Source: Ignavibacteriota bacterium (GTDB lineage: Bacteria; Bacteroidota; Ignavibacteria; UBA10030). Taken from it: a stretch of DNA of 64,000 nt. The translations under genes were made by a program, and so were the position numbers. The notes under the pieces were generated by a model, which saw nothing but the letters and a program-made list of their open reading frames with translations, had not been told where the DNA came from and searched no databases. This document shows positions 34,972 through 48,291 of the stretch, piece after piece; within the stretch, counting starts at the first letter, position 1, and each line of letters begins with the position of its first letter. The DNA is taken from NCBI GenBank assembly GCA_963701295.1, contig OY969585.1, positions 1,120,001-1,184,000 of the forward strand, given 5' to 3'.

Positions 34972-35010
34972 TGCGATTACTGGTGACAATTCAACAAAGA
35001 TAAATATTTT

Positions 35011-36297
35011 ATGAAAATTAAACTTAGGAATTTAGTCCTGATAGCTTCCATTATTACCAGTACGAACCTCTCATTTGCTCAATGGGTGCAGACCAATGTT
35101 CCTCTTGGCGGAGCAGTTAATGGCATTGCAGTCAACGGCAAAAATATTTTTGTATGCACGGATTTTGGGATCTTTCTTTCGACTGACGATGGAACAAGTT
35201 GGAGTGCCACAAGTCAAGCAAATCTTGGGGCAAATGCAATCGTTGCCGAAGGAGAAAAATTATTCGTTGTGAGAAATGGGGTCAGTCTTTCAACTGACGG
35301 TGGTATTTCCTGGAATGCCGTAAACAATGGATTGCCTTCATATAGCGTCGTTTTCAAAATTGCTATCAGCGGTACAACTCTATTTGCAATGGTTTATGGT
35401 TCAATGATGATGATGGGCGGGTGGGGTATCTTTCGTTCAACTGACGATGGTGCACACTGGACCGCAGTGGGTTTAGGATATCTTAGTGTCTATACTATTG
35501 CAGCTTATTCTAACTCTGCAGGAGATACCGATATTTTTGCTGGGACAGACGGCGGACTGAACAATGGTTATCTCACACCAGGCGTGTTCCTTTCGACCGA
35601 TGATGGTATTTCGTGGGATTCGCTCGGGTTGGTAAATGTGAATGTTCGCGCTATTGCCGCCGTTCATAATGGATCGGGTGATTCAAGTATCTTTGCCGGA
35701 ACGACGAATGGAATTTTTCGTTCGACCAACGGAGGCTTAAGCTGGGACACCGTAAACACAGGAATACCAGACACAATCGTACGTGCTCTTGCCGTCAGCC
35801 CTAATGGGACAGGCGGCAACAATCTATTTGCCGGGACTGATAGCGGCGTCTTTCTTTCTACCAACAACGGCGATAAATGGACATCAGTTAATACTGGTTT
35901 CACAAACACAACTTGTGTGATGGTTTTTTCCGTCTCCGGCACGTATCTTTTTGCTGGGACTAATAACGGTGTCTGGAGACGACCGTTGTCGGAAATGATC
36001 ACAGAAGTAGAAAGGCTCTCGGCCGTTTTGCCGATGCATTTTAGTCTTGACCAGAATTATCCGAATCCATTTAATCCGGCAACGATTATTTCCTTTAGTC
36101 TTCCATCAAAATCTTTTGTTTCGTTGAAGGTATTTGATATTATAGGGAAAGAGGTAGCAACTATTGTATCGGAAGAAATGTCGGCAGGCAACCACTCGCG
36201 GCAATGGAATGCAGCAAATATATCAAGTGGAATTTATTTTTGTCAGATGCAAGCGGGTTCGTTTGTCGAAACAAAGAAACTCGTTTTGCTCAAATAG
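35011..36297 (+). CDS. Cassette 1: BNR/Asp-box beta-propeller protein with T9SS-type C-terminal domain
   Basis: Repeated G.F.STD.G.SW motifs; LDQNYPNPFNP...SGIYF...KKLVLLK. Confidence 0.9.
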   Translation: MKIKLRNLVLIASIITSTNLSFAQWVQTNVPLGGAVNGIAVNGKNIFVCTDFGIFLSTDDGTSWSATSQANLGANAIVAEGEKLFVVRNGVSLSTDGGISWNAVNNGLPSYSVVFKIAISGTTLFAMVYGSMMMMGGWGIFRSTDDGAHWTAVGLGYLSVYTIAAYSNSAGDTDIFAGTDGGLNNGYLTPGVFLSTDDGISWDSLGLVNVNVRAIAAVHNGSGDSSIFAGTTNGIFRSTNGGLSWDTVNTGIPDTIVRALAVSPNGTGGNNLFAGTDSGVFLSTNNGDKWTSVNTGFTNTTCVMVFSVSGTYLFAGTNNGVWRRPLSEMITEVERLSAVLPMHFSLDQNYPNPFNPATIISFSLPSKSFVSLKVFDIIGKEVATIVSEEMSAGNHSRQWNAANISSGIYFCQMQAGSFVETKKLVLLK

Positions 36298-36307
36298 AGC
36301 AATTGCA

Positions 36308-36489
36308 CCCTAACCAGGCGCTCCCGCCCAACAAGACGGCGGGCAAGCAAGCTAACGGTTGCCAGTTGGGTACGTAAATCATGGCGAGCATAGGTTTAGT
36401 GCAAAATTGAAAGTTATCAGCGTGAACTTGTTTCGTTTAGTACAATTTGAAAGTTTTCATTGCCGCAGCTTAGCCGCCATCCGTTAGGT
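36308..36489 (+). other. attC1 (182 bp) with 25-bp hairpin insert at 36324-36348
   Basis: CCCTAAC-CAGGCGCTC[insert]AAGCTAAC ... GCAGCTTAG-CCGCCATCC-GTTAGGT. Confidence 0.85.
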
Positions 36490-36540
36490 GGCATTGTGAC
36501 GGGCAGCGGTGCTGGATTCAATCAAAGGATACAATACATA

Positions 36541-37212
36541 ATGAATTCTAAACTACTAAGTATTACTCGTATCGTTAGTTTCATCATGACAATATATATT
36601 TGGCGGGTGGTGCAATTCGCAGAGTTTTCTCAACTCGCAGAGTACACTCTGACCATCGGACCAATTTTGTTTGTTTTTCCAGTTGTCTGGATCGGACGGA
36701 AGGCGGTCAACCTCAAACCGACTTTTGAGCGTGTTGCCTGGATTACGAGCTTTGTTCATATCGTCTTAATGGTTTTCTTTGGTGTATCGATCATCGAAGC
36801 CATCAGACTGTTTCAAATCTCGCGTGGCATCACAATACCATTACCTGTCGAAATTGGAACGGTACTCCTTTATCTTACCGGTGCGTGTTTGTCATTGACC
36901 GTGGTAAATCTCGCATTAAGCGGACTCGGAGCACCATTTGCTATTGCATTGAGCAAGCGTCTTGCAAATCGCTGGATGTATCGTTGGACGAGAAATCCGA
37001 TGGTTTTATGCTGTCTCGCCATGCTTCTATCGGCTGGCATTTATTTACAGTCTCTTTATTTTGTTTTGTGGGTTGTTTTACTTGTAACACCGGCGTGGAT
37101 TTACTTTTTGAAAGTGTATGAAGAGCGCGAGCTTGAAATCCGTTTCGGTGCATCATACTTGGATTACAAAACTAATACTTCTTTTCTCTGGCCAAGAATA
37201 CCGAGGAATTGA
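36541..37212 (+). CDS. Cassette 2: PEMT/ICMT-like membrane methyltransferase family protein
   Basis: G.GAP, MYRWTRNPM, EEREL..RFG.SY..YK..T. Confidence 0.8.
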   Translation: MNSKLLSITRIVSFIMTIYIWRVVQFAEFSQLAEYTLTIGPILFVFPVVWIGRKAVNLKPTFERVAWITSFVHIVLMVFFGVSIIEAIRLFQISRGITIPLPVEIGTVLLYLTGACLSLTVVNLALSGLGAPFAIALSKRLANRWMYRWTRNPMVLCCLAMLLSAGIYLQSLYFVLWVVLLVTPAWIYFLKVYEERELEIRFGASYLDYKTNTSFLWPRIPRN

Positions 37213-37234
37213 AATATAATTGTATAACAATGCC

Positions 37235-37454
37235 GCTTAACCAGGCGCTCCCGCCCAACAAGACGGCGGGCAAGCAAGCTGACGGAATGAGCTCATTGCA
37301 ATTAGCATGGCTGGTGGTGGGTTTAAGTTATTATAATTAACTTTTTTGTACCTCGTTGGTTGAGACAAATAAATATGGTTATCAGCATGAACTCGTTTCG
37401 TTTTGTGGTTAATTAAACTTGGTCACGCGGCAGCTTAGCCGCCATCCGTTAGGC
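37235..37454 (+). other. attC2 (220 bp) with the identical 25-bp insert at 37251-37275
   Basis: GCTTAAC-CAGGCGCTC[insert]AAGCTGAC ... GCAGCTTAG-CCGCCATCC-GTTAGGC. Confidence 0.85.
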
Positions 37455-37501
37455 GGCTTCCATAAACTATGGCAGTCAATTAATGAAAAGGGGATCAGAT
37501 A

Positions 37502-39562
37502 ATGAAATTCTTGCTAAGATATTTTGAGAAATTCATATTGTATTTGCAAACCGCCTTTGGGGTGAAACATATTCACACAGTAATCATCCTTTTTCTATTG
37601 TTGATTAACCTAGTGCTGATAGTGGTGGTTTTCCTTCTTTCGAATTCACTCGCCTCTATCTTAACGAATATGGCACTAAATTTCCTACAATTCTTCTTTG
37701 TTGTAGTCCTTTTAGGTGTCATCTTGGGGATCACATCTAATTACTTGTACGACAAAGCTATAGCCGCACTAAATAATCCTATCGGAAGAGCTATAAGCGA
37801 AAGCAGATTGATTAATTACTTCCTACCTGACAAAGAAAGTGAGAAGGAGAGAAGAACAAATTTAACAGTTGAGCGTTTGCCCAGCATGAAAGGCGAAGTT
37901 TGCATATTCGCCATTGCAGCAACAAGCTACCTTCCCAAGAAAGATGATGCAACACGTTTCTCCCAATTATTCATCAGCAAGTTAATTAACAAAGAAATTA
38001 ATTTGCGACTATTATTACTCAATCCCTACAGCCAAGCTTCGAAGTTTAGATATGCGCGAGAAGAAGGTATTGATGTGGATGTTATTTGTGAAAGAGAGAG
38101 GAACGAAATGAGATTTGAGAGATCGGCGCTCTATGGTGACATTGTGAACACTATGGATAAAGTCAAAGAGCTAAGAACTAAAGGGGCCAACATAGAATGC
38201 AGACTTACCAACTTCGAGCCTGCAATATCAATGATGTACACCAGTGACTTTGTTTATATTGATATACTTTCCTTGGGAAGGTTAGATGAAACGACTAAGT
38301 TCACAAAGCAACGAACTACTTTGCCAATCACCGAATTCTCCTCAGATTCTGCGTATTATCAAGTCGCCAAAAGCCATTTTGAATACCATTGGAAATATGG
38401 AATCACACCAGATGAATTTGGTTACTATAAACCCGCTTTACAAGAAAGCTTCTTTGGTTTCTCCTATACGGGCTATAGGTTGATCAAACAGCACGATTCT
38501 TGGATTTCTATTGATCCAGTAGTTGGATGCAACGCGGGTTGTAAATACTGTGTTCTTCAAACAACATTTCGGAATGATATTAAACCGAAAGTCTACGCAA
38601 GTCCGGAGACCATTGGTGATCACCTTCGAGAAAGCAAATTCTATCATGAAGACGAAGTCCTTTGCCTATTCAATTACACTGATGCTCTACTAACCGAAAA
38701 CAAAGAGCGTTTGATAAGTTGTCTTGAGACCCTTAAGGAAAAGCAATTTCGAAATTGGGTATGCATTCCCACAAAACACCCATTTGATGTGAAATTCGCT
38801 CACAAAATAATAGACTCGTATCATCATAACAAGTTGATCTTTCTCATTTCCCTTTCGGGCATGCCAGAAGGATATGAGCCGAGTATTAAATCAGCAGAGA
38901 TTGTTGCCACTATGAAAATGTTGAAAGAACTTAAGATACCACTCATTCACTATTGGAGGCCTGTTACCAAATTAAATTCCAGTGATCAGCATATTGAAAG
39001 TATTTTGGACAAAGTCGATGAGTACGCAAATTGTTCTGTGATTGTTGGCTTAAAGGCTAGCGATGCTCTCAATGACTACTATGTAAATGAGGGGCTTATA
39101 AGTAAGAGTGAATTAAAGGTTCATGGAGATTATTTACCAGAAGGATTCATGAAGAAGGTCAAAAATATTCTGAATCAGAAAGGCAAGGTATATCCTATCT
39201 ATCTTCACGCATCCTGTGCCGTAAGCAAGATAACAAGTCAGCCTGACTATAATGGAACTATGCTCAGAAACGATGTGTGTTCATTGTCTGCTACAGGAGC
39301 CTCATTATGTATTTCAGACCAAGAATCGATATGCCAGAACTTCTTAAAACGCACACAGCAAGAATTTGACAAGACCAAATTCTATGAGATTATTAGAGAG
39401 ATTCTTCCCAGAATGGATATGAAGATTGATGGCAATACGATCGAACTATTGGATCCTGTTTATCAAGAAGATCTTATTTATCTCGTACATCGACTCAGGC
39501 AACCAGTAGTGGCGAAACAGATATTGTACACCAATCAGTATGTTGGTTCAATACTTGCCTAG
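37502..39562 (+). CDS. Cassette 3: TM + DUF5919-like + radical SAM fusion protein
   Basis: 2 TM; LRLLLLNPYS...R..E, ECRL..FEP, HFE.HW (DUF5919/PLD-like pattern); DPVVGCNAGCKYC (CxxxCxxC); YEP, IHYWRPV. Confidence 0.75.
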   Translation: MKFLLRYFEKFILYLQTAFGVKHIHTVIILFLLLINLVLIVVVFLLSNSLASILTNMALNFLQFFFVVVLLGVILGITSNYLYDKAIAALNNPIGRAISESRLINYFLPDKESEKERRTNLTVERLPSMKGEVCIFAIAATSYLPKKDDATRFSQLFISKLINKEINLRLLLLNPYSQASKFRYAREEGIDVDVICERERNEMRFERSALYGDIVNTMDKVKELRTKGANIECRLTNFEPAISMMYTSDFVYIDILSLGRLDETTKFTKQRTTLPITEFSSDSAYYQVAKSHFEYHWKYGITPDEFGYYKPALQESFFGFSYTGYRLIKQHDSWISIDPVVGCNAGCKYCVLQTTFRNDIKPKVYASPETIGDHLRESKFYHEDEVLCLFNYTDALLTENKERLISCLETLKEKQFRNWVCIPTKHPFDVKFAHKIIDSYHHNKLIFLISLSGMPEGYEPSIKSAEIVATMKMLKELKIPLIHYWRPVTKLNSSDQHIESILDKVDEYANCSVIVGLKASDALNDYYVNEGLISKSELKVHGDYLPEGFMKKVKNILNQKGKVYPIYLHASCAVSKITSQPDYNGTMLRNDVCSLSATGASLCISDQESICQNFLKRTQQEFDKTKFYEIIREILPRMDMKIDGNTIELLDPVYQEDLIYLVHRLRQPVVAKQILYTNQYVGSILA

Positions 39563-39604
39563 CGAATTGATGGAAAGACAAACTATGTGAATAAGCAAGT
39601 AACC

Positions 39605-39764
39605 ACCTAACAAATCGTTCAAGCTGACCGTATGAGCGTTAGTACCGATAAGCATGGCTTGCATAGGTTTTGGTTCTTAATAATAAACTTATCAGCATGA
39701 ACTTGTTTCGTTTTGTATATTTTGAAAGTTATCAACGTGGCAACTTAGTTGCCATCCGTTAGGC
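39605..39764 (+). other. attC3 (160 bp)
   Basis: ACCTAAC-AAATCGTTCAAGCTGAC ... GCAACTTAG-TTGCCATCC-GTTAGGC. Confidence 0.88.
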
Positions 39765-39799
39765 GGGCAAAAAACAATTACAAATACAGGAGAATGAAA

Positions 39800-40564
39800 A
39801 TGTATATGCAAAGAAAAAGAATGCTATTCCTTTATTTAATCTTGATGTCAGTCACGATTAACTTACAATCGCAAGATACATCATCAGAACGAAATTCTTT
39901 GAAAGCAGGTGCTTGGGCATTGCAGTTTGGGATTTCCAGTAACTTTACGCTCACATCATTTCAAGGAAGTAATATAGCGTTCAAATATCAATTATCCGAC
40001 AAGAGCGCTCTTCGTGGAGGAATAACAATTAACGGTAGCACTAATGATGGAACCACTTCAAATTCTGGATCAATCGATGATACCAGCTATGGTACTGCTC
40101 CGGGAAGCAGCTCAACGGAATCCGCAACTGCCTCTTTTGTTCTCCAATACTTATGGTATATGAATCCAAACGGCCCCGTACATTTCTACACTGGACTTGG
40201 TCCATTAGTTTCATACAGCTATTCCAAGTATTCCACAAATAATCCTTATTCATCTACTGTATATGATAGCGGAAGTTATCGCGGGTATTGAAATCGAAAT
40301 ATAAGTACTTCAAACTCTACCCAATGGGGATTTGGTGTATCGTGTGTTATTGGCGTCGAATGGTTTGCTTGCCAATGGTTATCCTTGCATGCAGATTACA
40401 ATGAAAGCATCCAATATCGATGGGGTTCGAATTCATCGAATCAAGAATGGTCTTCTTCGACCAGTCCAAATTTTATACCTTCTCAAACTAATAATTCTGG
40501 AACAAGCAAAGGATGGTCTTTAAGCAGTTCTAGCGTTGCATTCGGGCTAAATATATATTTGTAA
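39800..40564 (+). pseudogene. Cassette 4: outer-membrane beta-barrel protein interrupted by an in-frame TGA (40289-40291)
   Basis: Frame continues past TGA: NRNISTSNSTQWGFGVSCVIGVEWF...SSSSVAFGLNIYL*, ending 9 nt before attC4. Confidence 0.75.
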
Positions 40565-40572
40565 ATTTGCCC

Positions 40573-40789
40573 GCCTAACCAGGCGCTCAAGCTCTGCTTG
40601 TCCAGAAGAATGAATCACAGCCGGAGGCCTGAGAATGTCATTGCACGAAGTGCAATACAAATTTATTGGATGCAAAATTCATGGCGAGCAAAGGTTGAGT
40701 ACAAATTTGAAAGTTATCAGCATGAACTTGTTTCGTTTAGTGTATTTTGAAAATTATCAGCGCCGCAGCTTAGTTGCCAATCGTTAGGC
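40573..40789 (+). other. attC4 (217 bp) with internal replacement segment at about 40594-40667
   Basis: GCCTAAC-CAGGCGCTCAAGCT ... GCAGCTTAG-TTGCCAATC-GTTAGGC. Confidence 0.85.
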
Positions 40790-40830
40790 AGCAACACAAA
40801 GTATCTTACTAATATAACTAGGAGAAAATA

Positions 40831-41142
40831 ATGACAAACAATCTTACCCCACAGGAAGAAAAGCAACTTCTTGAGATGCTAAAAAACCAGCCGCGAGATA
40901 TTCGTTCTATCAATATTACTGCAAATCTTTTTCTGGTATTTGGTGGTTGTTTTATAGTTGGCACGGCGTTTTATTTACTCAAACACTTTACGGATAATGT
41001 AGCATATTTTGTAGGTCTACCAAATTTCGTTGGAGGGATGATATTGATCGTTAGTTATATTTTGCTTTCGAGGAGAGTAATCCGAATGAAACAGTTAAAC
41101 TCAATATTATCAAAGCTGCATAAAATGATTATTGCTGCCTAA
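40831..41142 (+). CDS. Cassette 5: hypothetical 2-TM protein
   Basis: AGGAG RBS; stop codon lies inside the attC R'' box (GCCTAAC). Confidence 0.8.
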   Translation: MTNNLTPQEEKQLLEMLKNQPRDIRSINITANLFLVFGGCFIVGTAFYLLKHFTDNVAYFVGLPNFVGGMILIVSYILLSRRVIRMKQLNSILSKLHKMIIAA

Positions 41143-41290
41143 CCAGGCGCTCAAGCTGACGGAATGAGCTGGGTGCGAAATTCATGGCGAGCATAGGTTA
41201 GTACAAGATTGAGAGAACCAGTATGAACTTGTTTCGTTGGTTGCATTACGAAACTTATAAACGCCGCAGCTTAGTGCCTGTCCGTTAGGG
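41137..41290 (+). other. attC5 (154 bp), uninterrupted reference form
   Basis: GCCTAAC-CAGGCGCT[C]AAGCTG[A]C ... GCAGCTTAG-TGCCTGTCC-GTTAGGG; two extrahelical bases at canonical positions. Confidence 0.9.
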
Positions 41291-41313
41291 CTATAATATT
41301 AAAGGAGTTCAAA

Positions 41314-41871
41314 ATGGATAAACATGAATTCTTAAAACAGCAATATATTTCATTACGAGAGGAAATTAAGGAAACTAAGGCACGTATTTTTAAAACCTTA
41401 GGTTTCGGTATTATTGCTGTTCCTGCTGCTAATTTTCTAGGAGAATCCTATCACATTGATGTTGTTATTCTATCGTTACCATTACTTGTCATTGTTCTTG
41501 CATTTCTATATTTATCAGAGAATAATGCTAAGATGAGATGTGGTAGATTTATAAGAATCCATATTGAAAGTTTATTCAAAGATATCCCTGGTTGGGAAAC
41601 CTGGCTTGAAAATCCTGAGGAGGAATATCAAACAAGAATTGTTGATATATATCTTGATGCTTGTTTTTATATCCTATTCTTCATTTACTATGTTGGTTCT
41701 GTTTTTCTTGAAACAAGATTTTCAATTCAAAATTTTCATCTTTTGATTACTGCTATGATACTTGGCTTTTACGTAGCAATTGGTATTTGGTTCTTAATAC
41801 ACTTAATTACACATATTCAAGTCTCTACGACAATTAAAATGGATAAGGACAAATTACAACATAAGCCCTAA
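41314..41871 (+). CDS. Cassette 6: hypothetical 4-TM protein
   Basis: AAAGGAG RBS; QYISLREEIK...R.GRFIR..IE......GWE; stop inside the R'' box. Confidence 0.8.
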   Translation: MDKHEFLKQQYISLREEIKETKARIFKTLGFGIIAVPAANFLGESYHIDVVILSLPLLVIVLAFLYLSENNAKMRCGRFIRIHIESLFKDIPGWETWLENPEEEYQTRIVDIYLDACFYILFFIYYVGSVFLETRFSIQNFHLLITAMILGFYVAIGIWFLIHLITHIQVSTTIKMDKDKLQHKP

Positions 41872-42082
41872 CCAAGTGCTCAAGCTCGGCTTGTCCAGAA
41901 GAATGCATCACAGCCGGAGGCCTGAGAATGTCATTGCACGAAGTGCAATACAAATTTATTGGATGCAAAATTCATGGCGAGCAAAGGTTGAGTACAAATT
42001 TGAAAGTTTTCAGCATAAACTCGTTTCGTTTTCAGCAACTTGAAATTTATCAGCGCCGCAGCTTAGCGCCGATCCGTTATAC
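41866..42082 (+). other. attC6 (217 bp), near-duplicate of attC4
   Basis: CCCTAAC-CAAGTGCTCAAGCT ... GCAGCTTAG-CGCCGATCC-GTTATAC. Confidence 0.85.
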
Positions 42083-42152
42083 CGCTTGCGTTTTAAGGTA
42101 AGTTGGCCGAATTTAGCAACACTATTAATAAAATGAAATAAGGAGATAAACC

Positions 42153-42527
42153 ATGAATATTTTCTTATGGGTTCTTCAAATTCTTCTTGCCTTGCATACC
42201 ATCATGGGTGCAGTTTGGAAGTTTTCCAATTCGGAACAAACCGTACCTTCCTTGAGTACAATTCCTCATGGATTTTGGCTGACGTTGAGCGTCATTGAGC
42301 TGCTTTGTAGTTTGGGTTTGATCCTCCCTGCACTAAATAAGCGACTAGGCGTCCTGGTGCCGGTCGCGGCGGTTTGTATTGCAGCTGAAATGCTGCTCTT
42401 TTCCGGATTGCATATTTACTCCGGTGACACGAATTACAACCAAATGATATATTGGCTCGTCGTGGCTGCCATATGTTCGTTTATTGCTTACGGTAGATTT
42501 GTGTTGAAACCTCTTAGACGTCCTTAA
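42153..42527 (+). CDS. Cassette 7: DoxX family membrane protein
   Basis: MNIFLWVLQILLA....GA.WK, IELL..LGLILP, FIAYGR. Confidence 0.85.
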   Translation: MNIFLWVLQILLALHTIMGAVWKFSNSEQTVPSLSTIPHGFWLTLSVIELLCSLGLILPALNKRLGVLVPVAAVCIAAEMLLFSGLHIYSGDTNYNQMIYWLVVAAICSFIAYGRFVLKPLRRP

Positions 42528-42573
42528 ATAAGAAGTCAATCAATATGAGTTATGCAAAAAAATGTCGCAAGCG

Positions 42574-42761
42574 GTATAACCAGGCGCTCAAGCTGACCGG
42601 ATGAGCGCCCGCCCAAAGATAAACATGGCGGGTAAATGGGCACGTTAAGCATGGCGCGTAGAGGTTCAGATGTTTAATAATAAACTTTTCAGCATGAACT
42701 TGTTTCGTATAGTACATATTGAAAGGTATCAGTGGCGCAGCTTATGCGCCATCTGTTAGGG
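42574..42761 (+). other. attC7 (188 bp) with CCCGCC/GGCGGG hairpin at 42608-42632
   Basis: GTATAAC-CAGGCGCTCAAGCTGAC ... GCAGCTTA-TGCGCCATCT-GTTAGGG. Confidence 0.87.
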
Positions 42762-42786
42762 CGCATTCAAAATAAAGGAGAATTAA

Positions 42787-43203
42787 ATAAAAAGTAGAAA
42801 AAAATATATTCCACTCATATTCATTATTCCAGCACTAATACGCTCAATTAATCATCCTCCTCAATTGACATCGGGTTCTATAGGATTATTTGTAGTTATT
42901 CTTCTTTTAGTTGGTTTGTTCGTTTATTTAGAAAAAAGTATGGAGAAAAGAATTCGTAGGTTCGATAGAATCAAAGATCATCGATTCCTCTATATATTAA
43001 GTTTTAGTTTACTTTGCGGCTTACCTCTATCATTGGTATTAACTTGGTCATGGGAGTCTCAAATAAAATTATTGTACGCCATTCTTTTTATTGTATTGCC
43101 GACAGTCGTAATTTTTGGATGGACTGGATTGATGGATTGGAAAGAATGTCAGAAAAAATATCTCGAATTGAAATATTCACAACACGCAAATAATGCGACC
43201 TAA
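42787..43203 (+). CDS. Cassette 8: hypothetical membrane protein; start codon appears to be ATA
   Basis: AAAGGAG RBS followed 6 nt later by in-frame ATA; open frame to TAA within the R'' box. Confidence 0.65.
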   Translation: MKSRKKYIPLIFIIPALIRSINHPPQLTSGSIGLFVVILLLVGLFVYLEKSMEKRIRRFDRIKDHRFLYILSFSLLCGLPLSLVLTWSWESQIKLLYAILFIVLPTVVIFGWTGLMDWKECQKKYLELKYSQHANNAT

Positions 43204-43260
43204 CCAGGCGCTCCCCGAAAAAAGAATTCGGGGCAGGCAAGCTGTCCGAATGAGCATTGA
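43198..43260 (+). other. attC8, left half only, with 25-bp hairpin insert at 43214-43238
   Basis: ACCTAAC-CAGGCGCTC[insert]AAGCTGTCCGAATGAGC; no right arm found before rarD. Confidence 0.7.
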
Positions 43261-43414
43261 CTCGCCTCTTTTTTCTTATTTATTATAAGAGTGAATTGAT
43301 GGAATGCGGGAGATGTAATAGTCTATCTCACCGATTGTCGTTCGTTGATCATGATTATTCTTCAGGAGAAGATCAAATGAAAGTGAAAAAAGAAAATGGT
43401 TCTCAGGTGAAACT

Positions 43415-44305
43415 ATGAACAAAGGAGTTTGGTACGCTATCGGAGCTTATGGAAGCTGGGGATTATTACCAATATATTGGAAATTGCTCCATCATGTTCC
43501 TGCATTGCAATTAATCAGCCATCGCATTATATGGTCTTTTCTTGCTCTCATCGTAATTATTCTTTGTATCCGTCAGTGGGCGGGTTTCCGTTCAAAAGTG
43601 TTTTCTTGGAATGTTCTTCGCGTGTACTGTTTAGCAGCGGTGCTGATCGGTGTCAACTGGCTGACGTATGTGTGGGCGGTCAATGCAGGTCATATTGTTG
43701 AATCCAGTCTCGGATATTTCATCAATCCTTTGCTCAGTGTATCTATAGGAGTGTTCTTCCTTCATGAGCATCTGCGCCCGAGGCAATGGATCTCTATCGC
43801 ATTAGCCGCGGCAGGGGTTCTCTTCCTTGCGATAGTTCATGGTTCTATCCCGTGGATCGCTCTCACGCTTGCTTTTTCATTTGCGTTCTACGGCCTCGTA
43901 AAAAAAACAGCGCCGCTCGGTTCGCTGTACGGCTTGACACTGGAAACTGGGATTCTACTACTTCCTGCATTGTTCTTTCTGTTTATTTCTGATATGAACG
44001 GTAGGGGAGCGTTTCTCCACACAGGCACAATGGCTGATATCCTCTTAGCTGGCGCGGGAATCGTCACAACCATCCCGCTGCTGATGTTTGCATCGGCAGC
44101 CCGGCGTATTCCGCTTTCGCTGATAGGTATTCTACAATATATCTCCCCGACGCTGCAGTTTCTTATCGGTGTGTTGATTTATCATGAGTCGTTCACGTTC
44201 ATTCAGTTTATCGGATACGCCATTGTCTGGCTCGCATTGATTCTTTTTGGAGCGGAAAGTTTCTTTGCTTATCGAACACAGATTGCTGTTATGGAACCTG
44301 AATAA
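43415..44305 (+). CDS. rarD: EamA family transporter RarD
   Basis: Y..WG.LP.YWK, HRIIWS, NW..YVWAVN.GH.VE.SLGYFINPL, YG..KK, LQYISPT.QF. Confidence 0.95.
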   Translation: MNKGVWYAIGAYGSWGLLPIYWKLLHHVPALQLISHRIIWSFLALIVIILCIRQWAGFRSKVFSWNVLRVYCLAAVLIGVNWLTYVWAVNAGHIVESSLGYFINPLLSVSIGVFFLHEHLRPRQWISIALAAAGVLFLAIVHGSIPWIALTLAFSFAFYGLVKKTAPLGSLYGLTLETGILLLPALFFLFISDMNGRGAFLHTGTMADILLAGAGIVTTIPLLMFASAARRIPLSLIGILQYISPTLQFLIGVLIYHESFTFIQFIGYAIVWLALILFGAESFFAYRTQIAVMEPE

Positions 44306-44316
44306 AAGTATTTATC

Positions 44317-44345
44317 TTGAAATTTGAACGAGTAAAAAGTAAATT
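44317..44345 (+). promoter_or_regulatory. Putative sigma70-type promoter
   Basis: TTGAAA-17 nt-TAAATT upstream of the YfiT-like gene. Confidence 0.5.
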
Positions 44346-44442
44346 AAGTACCATAACTTCTGAAGTGCTTTAATTTTAGATTGACCGATAATAAGTCAAA
44401 TGGTAGAATCATTCCAATTTTTTCTAAAATGAAAGGAGATAA

Positions 44443-44979
44443 ATGACTGTGAGTGAAAATCTTCAATATCCGATTGGCAAATACAAGAAGCCGGAACACA
44501 TCGACGCGGGACAGAGAGAACGTTTCATTCAGGAAATTGCCGCAGTGCCGAAGGAACTCCGCAAAGCGGTTGAAGGATTGAATGAGTTACAGCTCAACAC
44601 ACCGTATCGCGAAGGCGGCTGGACAGTCCGGCAAGTCGTCCATCATCTTCCCGACAGCCATATAAATGCATACGTACGGCTGAAACTCGCACTGACGGAA
44701 CATGAGCCGGATATTAAGACGTACAAAGAAGCATTATGGGCTGAGCTTCCCGATGTGAAGACGGTTCCGATTGAAATCTCATTGGCTCTTCTTGATGCGC
44801 TCCATGCGCGATTGATTGCCTGCCTGCGGGGCCTTGATAGTGATGCATTTGAAAAGAAATTTCGACATCCTGCAATGGGCCTTATGTCCCTGAACGAACA
44901 ACTGGCGCTCTATGCGTGGCATGGGAAGCATCATGTCGCTCATATCACAAGCCTGCGGCAGCGTATGGGATGGAAATGA
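44443..44979 (+). CDS. YfiT/BstA family bacillithiol transferase (DinB superfamily)
   Basis: LQYPIG, TPYREGGWTVRQVVHHLPDSH.N.Y.R.KLALTE, YAWHGKHH.AHI. Confidence 0.92.
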   Translation: MTVSENLQYPIGKYKKPEHIDAGQRERFIQEIAAVPKELRKAVEGLNELQLNTPYREGGWTVRQVVHHLPDSHINAYVRLKLALTEHEPDIKTYKEALWAELPDVKTVPIEISLALLDALHARLIACLRGLDSDAFEKKFRHPAMGLMSLNEQLALYAWHGKHHVAHITSLRQRMGWK

Positions 44980-45006
44980 TTATGGTTTTGAAATTCATTT
45001 TGGGAA

Positions 45007-45447
45007 ATGGCAATGACTGAATTACCGATTACCTATCGCGGTGTTGTCCATCCATGGCAGTGCGATCTGATGGGGCATATGAATGTCGTGTGGTATGTAA
45101 GTAAGTTTGACGACGCAGCGTGGCAGCTTTTTGCGATGATGGGGCTGGATGTCAGCTATTTTAACCGCACGCACTGCGGTGTCGCCGCACTTCAGCAAAA
45201 CATTACATACAAGGCAGAAATCCATCCCGGAAGCACAGTCACCATTCGTTCGGGCATTCTTGAACTCAAAGAGAAAACCGTCCGGTTCGTCCACGAAATG
45301 CGCAATGATGCAACCGGAGAAATCGCCGCTGTGATGGAGTTGACAGCCGTGCATTTCAACATGAAAAAAAGAAAATCATGCCCATTTCCTGCGGCAACGG
45401 CAAAACGCAGTAGGAATCTGATTGTGCAGTACGATGCAGAAACTTAA
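45007..45447 (+). CDS. 4HBT/FcbC-like acyl-CoA thioesterase
   Basis: TYRGVVHPWQCD.MGHMNV.WY. Confidence 0.88.
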   Translation: MAMTELPITYRGVVHPWQCDLMGHMNVVWYVSKFDDAAWQLFAMMGLDVSYFNRTHCGVAALQQNITYKAEIHPGSTVTIRSGILELKEKTVRFVHEMRNDATGEIAAVMELTAVHFNMKKRKSCPFPAATAKRSRNLIVQYDAET

Positions 45448-45633
45448 ACGTTAAAAAAGAAAGCTGGTGCTCACTCTGCCTTTTAAGACTATATAATCTT
45501 CATTTCCATATTTCTCGGCAAGCCGACGTGGAATGCAATTTGAGTTAACAGAATTGTTTAACAAGCCAGATGAGCTCGACATCTTCTAAGTGTGGTGTGA
45601 TAATATATATCGCACAAAAAGAGGGAGTACGTT

Positions 45634-46293
45634 ATGAATTACATGAAGATATTTCTGTATTCACAATTGATCATTTGTTTAGCTCTTCTCAGCTTTTTTG
45701 ATCTCCTTGTCATCGCAAATGGTATTTTTAAAATCGTTTTGAAAACGAATCCCCCAATTGATAAAGACACTAAGATTCTTGGCTCGTCAAATACATCAAA
45801 CAGTAATTCAGAAGTTCATAATTCAACCTTAATATCTATTCTTCTGAAGTATTTGGCAATAGATGCTAACCAATTATCGCAACAAAAAAATAGTATAATT
45901 CAAATTCGCCTTTTCTATGCGGCAATCCTAACGGGGCTTGTGTCATATCTATTTAGCAGTAATAATCCCTTGATCGCATTGTTTATTTTGTTTTTAATTC
46001 TAATAATGTATTTATTAGAAGTACACTTTAATGACTTAATAAATAGGAGTGAGATAGGTTACTTTATCATGCGCAAAGCAGTTGAACGGTTAATTAACTT
46101 GAAGCCGAAAAATAATAAATGGTATATTCTAAATTTTAAATCTCTTCTTAAACAGCAGGAGAATGCTAGTAATCATAGATGGCGGAGAAAATTCTTCTCT
46201 GCTTGTAATCCAAATATCGAGCAAATAATATTCTACTGTATTCCTTGGCTTGGGATAAGTTTATATCTAATTTATTTAATAATAATTAAATGA
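45634..46293 (+). CDS. Hypothetical AT-rich membrane protein (cassette-like)
   Basis: GAGGGAG RBS; 4 TM; followed by a degenerate attC-like sequence. Confidence 0.65.
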   Translation: MNYMKIFLYSQLIICLALLSFFDLLVIANGIFKIVLKTNPPIDKDTKILGSSNTSNSNSEVHNSTLISILLKYLAIDANQLSQQKNSIIQIRLFYAAILTGLVSYLFSSNNPLIALFILFLILIMYLLEVHFNDLINRSEIGYFIMRKAVERLINLKPKNNKWYILNFKSLLKQQENASNHRWRRKFFSACNPNIEQIIFYCIPWLGISLYLIYLIIIK

Positions 46294-46366
46294 CTATCAA
46301 TTGATAGGTCTCTCGGTTGGAGATATACAATCACTAAGTTTGAGTGTATTTAAATAAAAATCGGCA

Positions 46367-46530
46367 GTCCGAACAAGCGTCGGTGTGTTAACCATGGCTT
46401 ACAAACGTGCACTACATAATTGTGAGCCAGAAGCTTATGAGCCTTTTGCCTCAAAAAATGATGTGAATGAACTTGTTTCTGTTAGTACATTATTTGTAAT
46501 TTGTCAGCGGCGCAAGCAACTCAAGCTGAG
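46367..46530 (+). other. Degenerate attC relic
   Basis: Contains ATGAACTTGTTTCTGTTAGTACA...TCAGCGGCGCA, matching the conserved inner/right part of attC1-7; R boxes degraded. Confidence 0.45.
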
Positions 46531-46537
46531 TAATACT

Positions 46538-47296
46538 ATGGATTCTTCGATATCAAGAAAGCTTCGCAGGGCTTTTCGAAACCTCCCTAATCTTTGGAGT
46601 GGCTACAATATCTACGTAAATCGCGACAAGCTTGACCTGATCAAATTGACGTTTAGCAAGCTCAATCCCAAAGCAAGGTCGTTTGCAGATCTCGGAGGTG
46701 TCTGGAAGGTGAATGCGGCTTACTGCCTCTACACCATCAAGAACTTTCAAATCGAAAAGGGAATCTTGGTCGACACGGACTTTCCACCAACGCTTGCCGC
46801 GAAACTGCAACGATACACGAATCTTCAAGTTCTGCAAGGTGATTTTGCAGATCGATCGGTTGTGGACAGGATCGGCCAGGTTGACGTTATCTTCTTCTTC
46901 GATGTTCTTTTGCATCAGGCAAATCCAGATTGGGACCAGATCATTGAGCGCTATGCAAGCAGCTGCTCCTGTTTCATAATTTATAATCAACAGTTTGTTC
47001 GAGGCGAGGAGACCGTCCGCCTTACAAACTTGCCGTTCGAAAAATACATCGAATTAGTTTCGGATCATGGGAAGGATCTGACCCATTACATTTACGAACA
47101 CAGGGAGGAGATTCATCCGAAGTATAGAAAACCGTGGAAGGATATTCACAATATCACGCAATGGGGTATCACTGACCGAGGACTGCGGCAGACCATGGCA
47201 CGATTAGGTTTCAGGGAAGTTTTTTACATGAACTACGGAATGTTTATTAACTTGCCTGCATTCGAGAATCATGCATTTGTTTTTATGCGAGGATGA
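46538..47296 (+). CDS. Class I SAM methyltransferase-like protein
   Basis: SFADLGGVW, LQGDF, FFFDVLLHQ.NP; start set at MDSSI because the upstream extension lies in the attC relic. Confidence 0.65.
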   Translation: MDSSISRKLRRAFRNLPNLWSGYNIYVNRDKLDLIKLTFSKLNPKARSFADLGGVWKVNAAYCLYTIKNFQIEKGILVDTDFPPTLAAKLQRYTNLQVLQGDFADRSVVDRIGQVDVIFFFDVLLHQANPDWDQIIERYASSCSCFIIYNQQFVRGEETVRLTNLPFEKYIELVSDHGKDLTHYIYEHREEIHPKYRKPWKDIHNITQWGITDRGLRQTMARLGFREVFYMNYGMFINLPAFENHAFVFMRG

Positions 47297-47330
47297 CCGT
47301 TCGACCCTCTCGAGTCATTGCAGGCTTGCG

Positions 47331-47441
47331 GTCTATCCAGGCGCTCACTCGGTTTGTCTATGGAAAATATGAATATGGACTGCTTTGTGAAAGAATCTCA
47401 TCGTTCATTGAAGTTACGAGGCAGGCTCGGCATCGTTAGGT
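47331..47441 (+). other. Degenerate attC relic
   Basis: GTCTATCCAGGCGCTCA (cf. GCCTAACCAGGCGCTCA) ... CATCGTTAGGT. Confidence 0.5.
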
Positions 47442-47543
47442 GAGCGCCATCGGAGTATCATGAAACATTGCATGGTATCATCTCGTATAAGAAATCGTTC
47501 CTATAAATCAATTCTCTCCATAACCACATAAGGAGCAATACAA

Positions 47544-47972
47544 ATGGAAAAGCATATTTCACTCGTGGCAATTCTGAATATCGTGTACCGCTCGCTGGCA
47601 ATCATCGGAGCGATTGTTCTCTTCTGCATTGCGTATGGATTCAGCTTTCTTATGAGGTTCATTTCGCATTGCAGCCACAATGAGATACAAGAGATCCCGG
47701 CGGAAGTATTTGGCATCGTACAGATTGTTCTTACAGTTATTGGTATTCTCGTTTTAATTTTTGCTGTCGTCGGAATCATCGGCGCTATCGGCGTAATCAG
47801 GAAAAAGGAATGGGGACGTATTACCTTGCTTATTGTATCATTCTTCAGCTTGCTCAGCATTCCGCTTGGCACTATTCTTGGAGTGTATAGCATTTGGGTC
47901 CTTTTGAACGACGAGACGATTCGGCTCTTTAATCCGGTTCCCAACACTTCGGCCAAGAAAACAGCAAAATAA
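47544..47972 (+). CDS. Hypothetical membrane protein
   Basis: AAGGAG RBS; WGRI......F..L.IP.GT.LG.Y..WVL. Confidence 0.75.
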   Translation: MEKHISLVAILNIVYRSLAIIGAIVLFCIAYGFSFLMRFISHCSHNEIQEIPAEVFGIVQIVLTVIGILVLIFAVVGIIGAIGVIRKKEWGRITLLIVSFFSLLSIPLGTILGVYSIWVLLNDETIRLFNPVPNTSAKKTAK

Positions 47973-47991
47973 TTTCCGGATATTTTCTTTT

Positions 47992-48291
47992 ATGAAAATT
48001 CTGGCACTTGAAAAAGAAATCCCCGGTATAACCGATAACCGGTTTACTCCTGAGATTCTTCGCAAGGAATCTGCGCGGGCGTGGGAACTGCAACAGGAAG
48101 GAATAATCCGCGAATTATATTTCCGCTATGATCGTCAGGAAGCGGTACTCATACTCGAATGTAAGAACGCTGAAGAAGCTCGATCGGTGCTTGCATCGCT
48201 GCCGTTAGTCAAAGAAGGCCTGATCACATTTGACATTATCCCTTTGACAGCATACCCGGGGTTTGCCAGGCTTTTTGAAAAGAAGAAATAA
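47992..48291 (+). CDS. Muconolactone isomerase-like small protein
   Basis: E...AWEL...G.IRE.YFR, AVLILEC....EA...L..LPLV..GLI.FD.IPL..YP. Confidence 0.7.
   Translation: MKILALEKEIPGITDNRFTPEILRKESARAWELQQEGIIRELYFRYDRQEAVLILECKNAEEARSVLASLPLVKEGLITFDIIPLTAYPGFARLFEKKK

Follow-up and report, generated by a model that had tools for sequence, protein, structure and literature searches.

Which agent sets hairpins of 25 nt at one fixed point of integron attC sites, and what becomes of the sites that receive them? The question is raised by a 64,000-nt stretch (hereafter, the window) of the genome of an Ignavibacteriota bacterium (assembly GCA_963701295.1, contig OY969585.1), which holds at 35011-43255 a cassette array with seven complete attC sites and one half site, three of these eight being interrupted by such inserts, which have no coding capacity. 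The reading favoured here, at a probability of about 50%, is that the inserts belong to a family of non-coding hairpins of about 19-45 nt that would be moved by a GIY-YIG nuclease, inserting in attC sites and in other folded DNA, and crippling the sites that are hit in the L box. Within this reading, the element boundaries, the family, the insertion hotspot, the other targets and the enrichment beside GIY-YIG genes are direct observations.

Footed hairpins beside the extrahelical base

Two positions within the attC sites have to be distinguished: site A, which is the junction beside the extrahelical base of L'', and site B, located in the variable terminal structure. The elements found at them in the window are the following.

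36323..36347, minus strand: footed hairpin element at site A of attC1; 25 nt, with the foot at 36344-36347
37250..37274, minus strand: footed hairpin element at site A of attC2; 25 nt, identical to the attC1 element
43213..43237, minus strand: footed hairpin element at site A of attC8; 25 nt, second allele
42608..42636, minus strand: hairpin element at site B of attC7; 29 nt, with the same stem type and a second kind of foot
36348, plus strand: extrahelical base of L'' in attC1 (C on the top strand, G on the bottom one), retained and adjoining the insert, as placed from the fold of attC5 and constrained folds

The three site-A inserts had been reported in the initial annotation as 25-nt hairpins, and so they are: read on the bottom strand, each consists of a 4-nt unpaired foot and a stem of 6-7 bp, with fold z scores of -3.1, -3.1 and -3.9 (attC1, attC2 and attC8, respectively) that none of 200 shuffles equalled. 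Their length was right, and the register that had been drawn is one of two equivalent ones; the junction lies one base further to the left, giving the coordinates listed above. This is settled by a footless class of hairpins that also occupies site A, both in this genome (G000) and in three relatives (G005, G009 and G024), and that allows a single register because it cannot slide, which puts the junction on the 5' side of the extrahelical C when the top strand is read, and directly 3' of its G counterpart on the bottom one. Filled sites therefore keep the bulged base of L''. At site A the foot resembles L'', giving the appearance of a target-site duplication of the foot; that candidate was ruled out by site B, by the other feet and by a half copy of tRNA-Leu in G000, where the exact junction of the element can be read with no duplication. 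The foot-plus-hairpin architecture that had been proposed from the window is supported. As for attC8, its different allele is genuine, but the site is a half one, with no L' or R'. The 29-nt hairpin of attC7 and the nested inserts of attC4 and attC6 had been overlooked.

Site A as an insertion hotspot

G000 is a single contig of 3.64 Mb. Its attC left arms, about 140 and all of one family, are distributed in at least nine arrays, and its sole integron integrase above the TIGR02249 cut-off is encoded 2.4 Mb from the window, none being found beside the window array. Site A is filled in 8 of the 140 attC sites, by five identical 25-mers, a 24-nt relative, the attC8 allele and a footless 22-mer. 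The five identical copies stand in different attC bodies, all of the commonest left-arm type, while the 24-nt relative sits on a different one. Since attC1 and attC2 both carry the allele that is found in three further attC sites, they are not established as separate events. Hairpins occupy site B in 18 attC sites, and the subfamily of the attC inserts is also present in one site at the mirror position in L'. With a relaxed description of the footed-hairpin family, 24 of the 47 matches in G000 fall within attC (21 by script and three more by eye), vs the approximately 0.8% of the genome that attC sites represent, and part of the 23 remaining matches are probably due to chance; with the exact subfamily, all nine copies are in attC. 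In this genome, the family lies in attC more often than chance would give.

Such an enrichment would suit a different explanation, namely that IntI, or the machinery that builds cassettes, itself writes the hairpins into attC. This appears very improbable, given that the hairpins enter the L box and the variable terminal structure, away from the IntI crossover in R, and that copies are frequent both outside attC and in genomes without a match to this attC pattern.

The relatives extend the picture. A site-A pattern that forces the foot has matches in 17 of 121 genomes (the reversed pattern in none), 32 in total, three of them unconvincing as hairpins. A foot-free pattern gave 27 matches in 8 of 74 genomes, and all 27 are hairpins, 11 with the window-type foot, four with the second foot and 12 footless. 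When the inserts were tabulated across the attC loci of relatives, 25 distinct alleles of 21-52 nt were found at site A, along with tandem pairs of elements and elements nested inside the loop of another; there are 19 filled sites in G010, and in G228, which belongs to another family, the site-B hairpin of G000 stands at site A. Site A is a true insertion hotspot, with repeated independent insertions. The independence claimed in the initial annotation holds, in consequence, for the junction as a whole (25 alleles, three classes, tandem and nested copies), but not for attC1 as opposed to attC2. A strict pattern matched in 4 of 301 genomes phylum-wide, so the site-A form is found mainly in this family. 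On metagenome contigs, a loose pattern gave 116 matches (from 3 of 64 parts), two of them with a stem and one attC-like, which means that chance dominates there and no breadth is shown.

Might one or two ancient insertions, drifted and copied together with the attC template, be enough, with mobility no longer ongoing? Both hairpin bodies of the window stand at site A of G005 with another foot, and one of them also in G001 and G006; because of the former, the window alleles are probably inherited. The five identical alleles in different attC bodies of one left-arm type would fit as well. Nonetheless, this account explains identical copies and not a hotspot, and as a full account it is contradicted by the unrelated classes at one junction, the tandem and nested copies, the other positions occupied and the copies outside attC, which leave it with a marginal probability, the lowest of the explanations weighed here.

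Apart from this, several observations concern the makeup of the sites and their inserts. Within one genome, attC sites next to each other can hold a single hairpin body with either of two feet, distinguished by two positions (L022 in G015, L147 in G009 and L152-L153 in G005), and the two intermediate foot states are rare or unseen. In G000, longer nested hairpins of another family lie within L' (C1:261282, 1406137, 1810147, 3135132, 3336575, 3337441 and 3533651), and the variable terminal structure holds more hairpin families. The attC sites of G000 are pieced together as mosaics from a small set of exchangeable modules: left arm, spacer, an optional 38-nt block and right arm.

Targets beyond attC and the rules of the junction

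The element is exclusive neither to attC nor to the bulged base. The exact subfamily has 178 matches in 54 of 101 genomes, and its reversed control has none. From these, 72 copies were examined (30 loci from pattern searches, 40 picked by hand from the listing and two viral), which fall in attC (13 by script, and at least five more recognised by eye), in a tRNA copy with a GIY-YIG gene (two), near a tRNA (seven), near a Y1 gene (three) and elsewhere (47), many of the last lying inside different hairpin repeats. The two matches on viral contigs are both outside attC. With two other attC positions and many non-attC sites occupied, the specificity for the extrahelical base that had been proposed does not stand.

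Is there, then, any rule for the junction? Of 54 distinct junctions, 48 have a purine immediately 5' of the foot, as do 38 of the 44 left after removing those in attC and 25 of 33 in a second set, and a G five bases upstream is favoured as well (26/44). Target sequence and target structure are inseparable here, because both L arms fit this weak motif and their two junctions lie at most one base from the bulge in the fold of their own strand. There is also a weak tendency towards hairpin loops, with 8 of 54 junctions in them vs 3.4 expected and a maximum of 11 in the shuffles.

The candidate mobiliser

In G000 there are six GIY-YIG matches, four of which are small stand-alone genes. Three of these adjoin a tRNA gene and a partial duplicate of the tRNA that is interrupted by a hairpin, footed in the cases of tRNA-Cys and tRNA-Leu.

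C1:3414936-3415230: small GIY-YIG locus linked to tRNA-Cys, with the P0001 gene at C1:3414936-3415190 (minus strand)
C1:3297500-3297830: small GIY-YIG locus linked to tRNA-Leu, with the P0002 gene at C1:3297514-3297753 (minus strand)
C1:2356095-2356520: small GIY-YIG locus linked to tRNA-Ala

The fourth (C1:2938600-2939500) is of the Ssn type and stands between SRM-like repeat arrays. SsnA, a related single-domain GIY-YIG protein, binds a footed hairpin as single-stranded DNA (ssDNA) and cuts a few bases upstream of it (PMC11893778). The best solved-structure matches of the candidate P0002 are PDB 1ywl and 1zg2 (UPF0213; E values of 5e-7 and 2e-5), and it shares 47% identity with the other candidate, P0001, which in turn shares 27% with the Ssn-type protein of G000. 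In a tree of 76 columns, with many forks open, both candidates fall outside the supported clade that contains the Ssn-type protein, so they are probably a sister group and not members of the Ssn clade cd10448. No name was returned by NCBIfam for the GIY-YIG proteins. The clades of small GIY-YIG proteins seem to track tRNA identity, and in G002 (C2:365051-368823) one such gene is repeated in 13 tandem copies, at a spacing of about 299 bp.

Footed hairpins are commoner beside these genes. In the relatives, 16 of 29 loci of GIY-YIG homologues have one within 250 nt, vs 8 of 30 Y1 loci (p 0.035) and a background of 1 in 20 distant windows and 14 in 300 random ones. Across GTDB, they appear upstream of 7 of 40 GIY-YIG genes, vs 2 of 71 distant windows and 12 of 800 shuffled ones. 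Moreover, both the attC subfamily and the footless class are found inside tRNA copies upstream of GIY-YIG genes (L119, L393, L112, L102 and L103). On these grounds, a GIY-YIG nuclease related to Ssn would be the mobiliser at about even odds.

A number of results weigh against that assignment. Downstream of GIY-YIG genes there is no enrichment across GTDB (1 of 39 windows); just two of the 72 exact-subfamily copies lie within 450 nt of a GIY-YIG gene, a Y1 gene being near three; the Y1 loci, at 8 of 30, likewise exceed the background; and the 70 GIY-YIG loci examined yielded neither window allele. Both gene families occur in nearly all of these genomes (GIY-YIG in 53 of 61, Y1 in 36 of 41), so their co-occurrence with the element is uninformative. 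Strand transfer by Ssn is not reported in the available text of PMC11893778, and the hairpins adjacent to GIY-YIG genes may be passengers of structured, unselected DNA.

The main competitor is a repetitive extragenic palindromic (REP)-type element moved by an HUH transposase (Y1, RAYT-like), with the foot as guide tetranucleotide. A 4-nt foot 5' of a palindrome and the lack of target duplication are the architecture of REPs and of the ends of IS200/IS605 elements (PMC8266576). In addition, HUH enzymes cut and rejoin single strands, something that a GIY-YIG nuclease is not known to do, and the Y1 loci and subfamily copies counted above (8/30 and 3/72) also speak for it. Base-pair-guided targeting would furthermore be suited by the tendency of the closing stem pair to agree with the purine of the target (p 0.0009 over the 54 junctions), but this weakens to p 0.04 without the attC junctions and was not reproduced in an independent set (p 0.40). 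Besides, the only Y1 match found in G000 is flanked by canonical REP-type repeats whose sequence is unrelated to that of the attC element. Regarding the relatives, 30 Y1 loci were scanned from about 200 matches and six of them were inspected, of which three carry end hairpins belonging to the Y1 element itself and three a palindrome of another, double-footed type, with none of the six bracketed by the attC subfamily. The RAYT partner that the initial annotation had suggested to look for, flanked by hairpins of this kind, has therefore not emerged among them. An element of REP type is considered unlikely, and the odds that the mobiliser is an HUH enzyme are about one in five.

Returning to the GIY-YIG reading, what route could the element follow? 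It would insert time and again at a small number of fixed points of attC and in other folded DNA, without duplicating the target, and its mover would likely be the small stand-alone GIY-YIG nuclease of the tRNA-linked cassettes. The nuclease would nick folded ssDNA (attC arms by the bulge, copies of tRNA genes and other repeats) on the 3' side of a purine, after which a copy of the hairpin would be written in by host repair. Identical alleles in different attC bodies would have spread through recombination or conversion between attC sites. In an integron, the insert is predicted to form a three-way junction in the IntI binding site, resulting in poor recombination, so that the cassette would age in place and gather damage.

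Folding and decay of the filled sites

How would such an insert affect the site? The filled and empty forms were folded with the R and L pairs enforced (following PMC5371416), since the unconstrained folds of these long sites are uninformative, and the insert loops out as a side hairpin next to the bulged G. Predicted recombinogenic folding drops 3- to 40-fold in four of the five complete filled sites (from 0.43 to 0.023, from 0.03 to 0.0022, from 0.0055 to 0.00014 and from 0.012 to 0.0038), the median folding probability of the 82 uninterrupted sites of G000 being 0.27. The extrahelical G is contacted by IntI, and excision depends on which bases are bulged, how they are spaced and on which side they lie (PMC3053210), so poor recombination by IntI is predicted for the filled sites. 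Against a general crippling stand the fifth filled site, which folds as well as its empty form (0.27-0.28), and the intact L' of all five complete filled sites of G000. Furthermore, neighbouring cassettes in runs share one allele (5 of 6 in G023), which calls for conversion in place unless the filled sites remain functional.

The filled sites also differ in their state and position. In G000, 4 of 8 are broken elsewhere, vs 16 of 103 unfilled ones (p 0.034), although on inspection four of those 16 were intact and one had an L' insert. Inserts of all kinds skew to the distal ends of the arrays (mean rank of 0.64 vs 0.46, for 31 and 108 sites; p 0.0035), in a test where one double count remains and for which an earlier census, lacking most site-A inserts, gave p 0.07. 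In the arrays of relatives, L' is also interrupted in 21 of 23 sites filled at site A, vs 14 of 110 unfilled ones, in loci that were in part selected because they had inserts; when the end rule is relaxed, the counts are 23/28 and 30/117, most of the 30 being miscalls. One insert may relieve the site of selection, or else create a junction that draws in the next. Within G000, no duplicates of the cassettes with filled sites were found (81% for the best match, through shared secretion tails), and among the sequencing runs listed, five of DNA with shares of 0.06-0.10 and none of RNA, the three DNA runs compared do not span the filled junctions, so they carry no information on empty alleles.

Could the hairpins be selected instead, being retained by the host in the L box to freeze useful cassettes, or acting as an off switch when both L arms are hit? 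The dependence of IntI on the extrahelical G and its bulge would make such a lock feasible (PMC3053210), and the coupling of 21/23 vs 14/110 seems far above what ageing alone would need. That coupling, however, comes from loci partly selected for inserts and is absent from the five complete filled sites of G000. Moreover, the L box of attC holds a minority of the copies of the element, half sites are found among the filled sites, whose position is toward distal ends, and neither of the first two cassettes, the ones compared, was found conserved in 15 genomes of the genus. A selected lock is thus held to be quite improbable, and the position and decay of the filled sites fit passive build-up in old cassettes better than a regulated lock.

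Relation to known elements

The closest counterpart is the Ssn system with its NTS/SRM repeats (Chenal et al. 2025, PMC11893778), with which it shares a small single-domain GIY-YIG gene and hairpin repeats, short and oriented, whose unpaired foot is conserved. Ssn/SRM has been proposed to resemble a domesticated mobile element (PMC11893778), and hairpin repeats flank a single-domain GIY-YIG gene here as well. Nevertheless, the foot and stem of the attC element are, by eye, unlike the published NTS (PMC11893778), the candidate genes sit in tRNA duplications, and attC is not reported as an Ssn target in the available text of that work. Among stand-alone bacterial GIY-YIG proteins, the Slx1-like/UPF0213 ones (PDB 1ywl and 1zg2) have the same minimal domain and are, as said, the best structural matches of P0002, but the available text of PMC1564403 does not link them to hairpin repeats or tRNA duplications.

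With the REP/BIME/REPIN elements and their TnpA-REP (RAYT) proteins, the family has in common a non-coding palindrome of 20-50 nt after a conserved tetranucleotide, in many copies (PMC8266576), here with a 4-nt foot and a 6-7 bp stem conserved in 54 of 101 genomes. Unlike them, its foot is not the canonical tetranucleotide, has at least two states and is missing in one class, and its elements stand single at fixed points of structured elements, while REPs form paired BIME arrays. A classical miniature inverted-repeat transposable element derived from a DDE transposon is at odds with the asymmetric foot and with the exact junctions that lack duplication. Neither micro-hairpins in attC nor hairpin-studded tRNA copies beside small GIY-YIG genes were found described in a literature search mostly outside subscription papers.

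The attC invaders known so far, IS1111-attC elements and group IIC-attC introns, are kb-sized, carry the gene for their own enzyme and insert in the R boxes or close to them. The use of attC as a landing pad is shared with them, but the elements dealt with here are of about 25 nt, non-coding, and located in the L box and the variable terminal structure. G000 also harbours a 1.4-kb element with a transposase of 340-370 aa, which we take to be of the IS110/IS1111 type from its transposase motifs, in the R'' box of 11 attC sites (e.g., 226045-227425 and 2396470-2397727), nine of the copies being nearly identical and the other two representing a second variant with 83% identity.

The array and its cassettes

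The attC sites of the window and the cassette genes with assigned features are as follows.

36308..36489, plus strand: attC1, complete (R'', L'', long variable terminal structure, L', R'); closes the 428-aa cassette gene
37235..37454, plus strand: attC2, complete, long form
39605..39764, plus strand: attC3, without interruption
40573..40789, plus strand: attC4, site A empty; nested hairpin inserts of about 60 nt immediately after L''
41137..41290, plus strand: attC5, without interruption; reference site, with the canonical attC hairpin fold of the bottom strand
41866..42082, plus strand: attC6, near copy of attC4, with nested inserts as in it
42574..42761, plus strand: attC7, site A empty
43198..43255, plus strand: attC8, left half alone; neither L' nor R' found downstream
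35011..36297, plus strand: cassette gene closed by attC1; repeat protein with a type IX secretion C-terminal sorting domain (PF18962)
36541..37212, plus strand: cassette gene closed by attC2; phospholipid methyltransferase-like membrane protein (PF04191)
42865..43203, plus strand: cassette gene closed by attC8; small membrane protein

Between attC3 and attC4, the gene of the cassette (39770-40565) is broken by a stop at 40289-40291, and position 40291 reads G in a contig from another sample. The one at 37502-39562 encodes 686 aa with no Pfam match and with a CxxxCxxC motif in its C-terminal half, of the kind present in radical SAM proteins. Two more degenerate attC-like remnants lie downstream of the array (46380-46530 and 47333-47443), the first of them holding a hairpin insert from another family. 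An Rfam search of 35000-48000 gave no match. Throughout G000, many cassette-encoded proteins have type IX secretion tails, and cassettes of about 350-430 bp are repeated in tandem and across arrays with 86-98% identity (C1:230641-232374, 2478541-2479112, 2485941-2486377 and 3166213-3167583).

Implications

In its boldest form, the proposal would be that a sister family of Ssn drives the smallest class of bacterial mobile elements, hairpins of 20-45 nt pasted beside ssDNA bulges and junctions without duplication, which in integrons would hit both L-box arms, take cassettes out of recombination and leave barcodes of the copying of attC halves; put in such terms, it is rather doubtful. For integrons, the inserts represent a third and far smaller class of attC parasite, providing natural alleles to assess the tolerance of the L box, and they probably hide the sites that carry them from attC-detection models. 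They would, in addition, serve as heritable marks for studying how attC sites are made and homogenised in large chromosomal arrays. If the link with GIY-YIG were true, an 80-residue nuclease without known function would gain a substrate and a genomic footprint, and there would be a new route of insertion into folded ssDNA, amenable to be tested with oligonucleotides.

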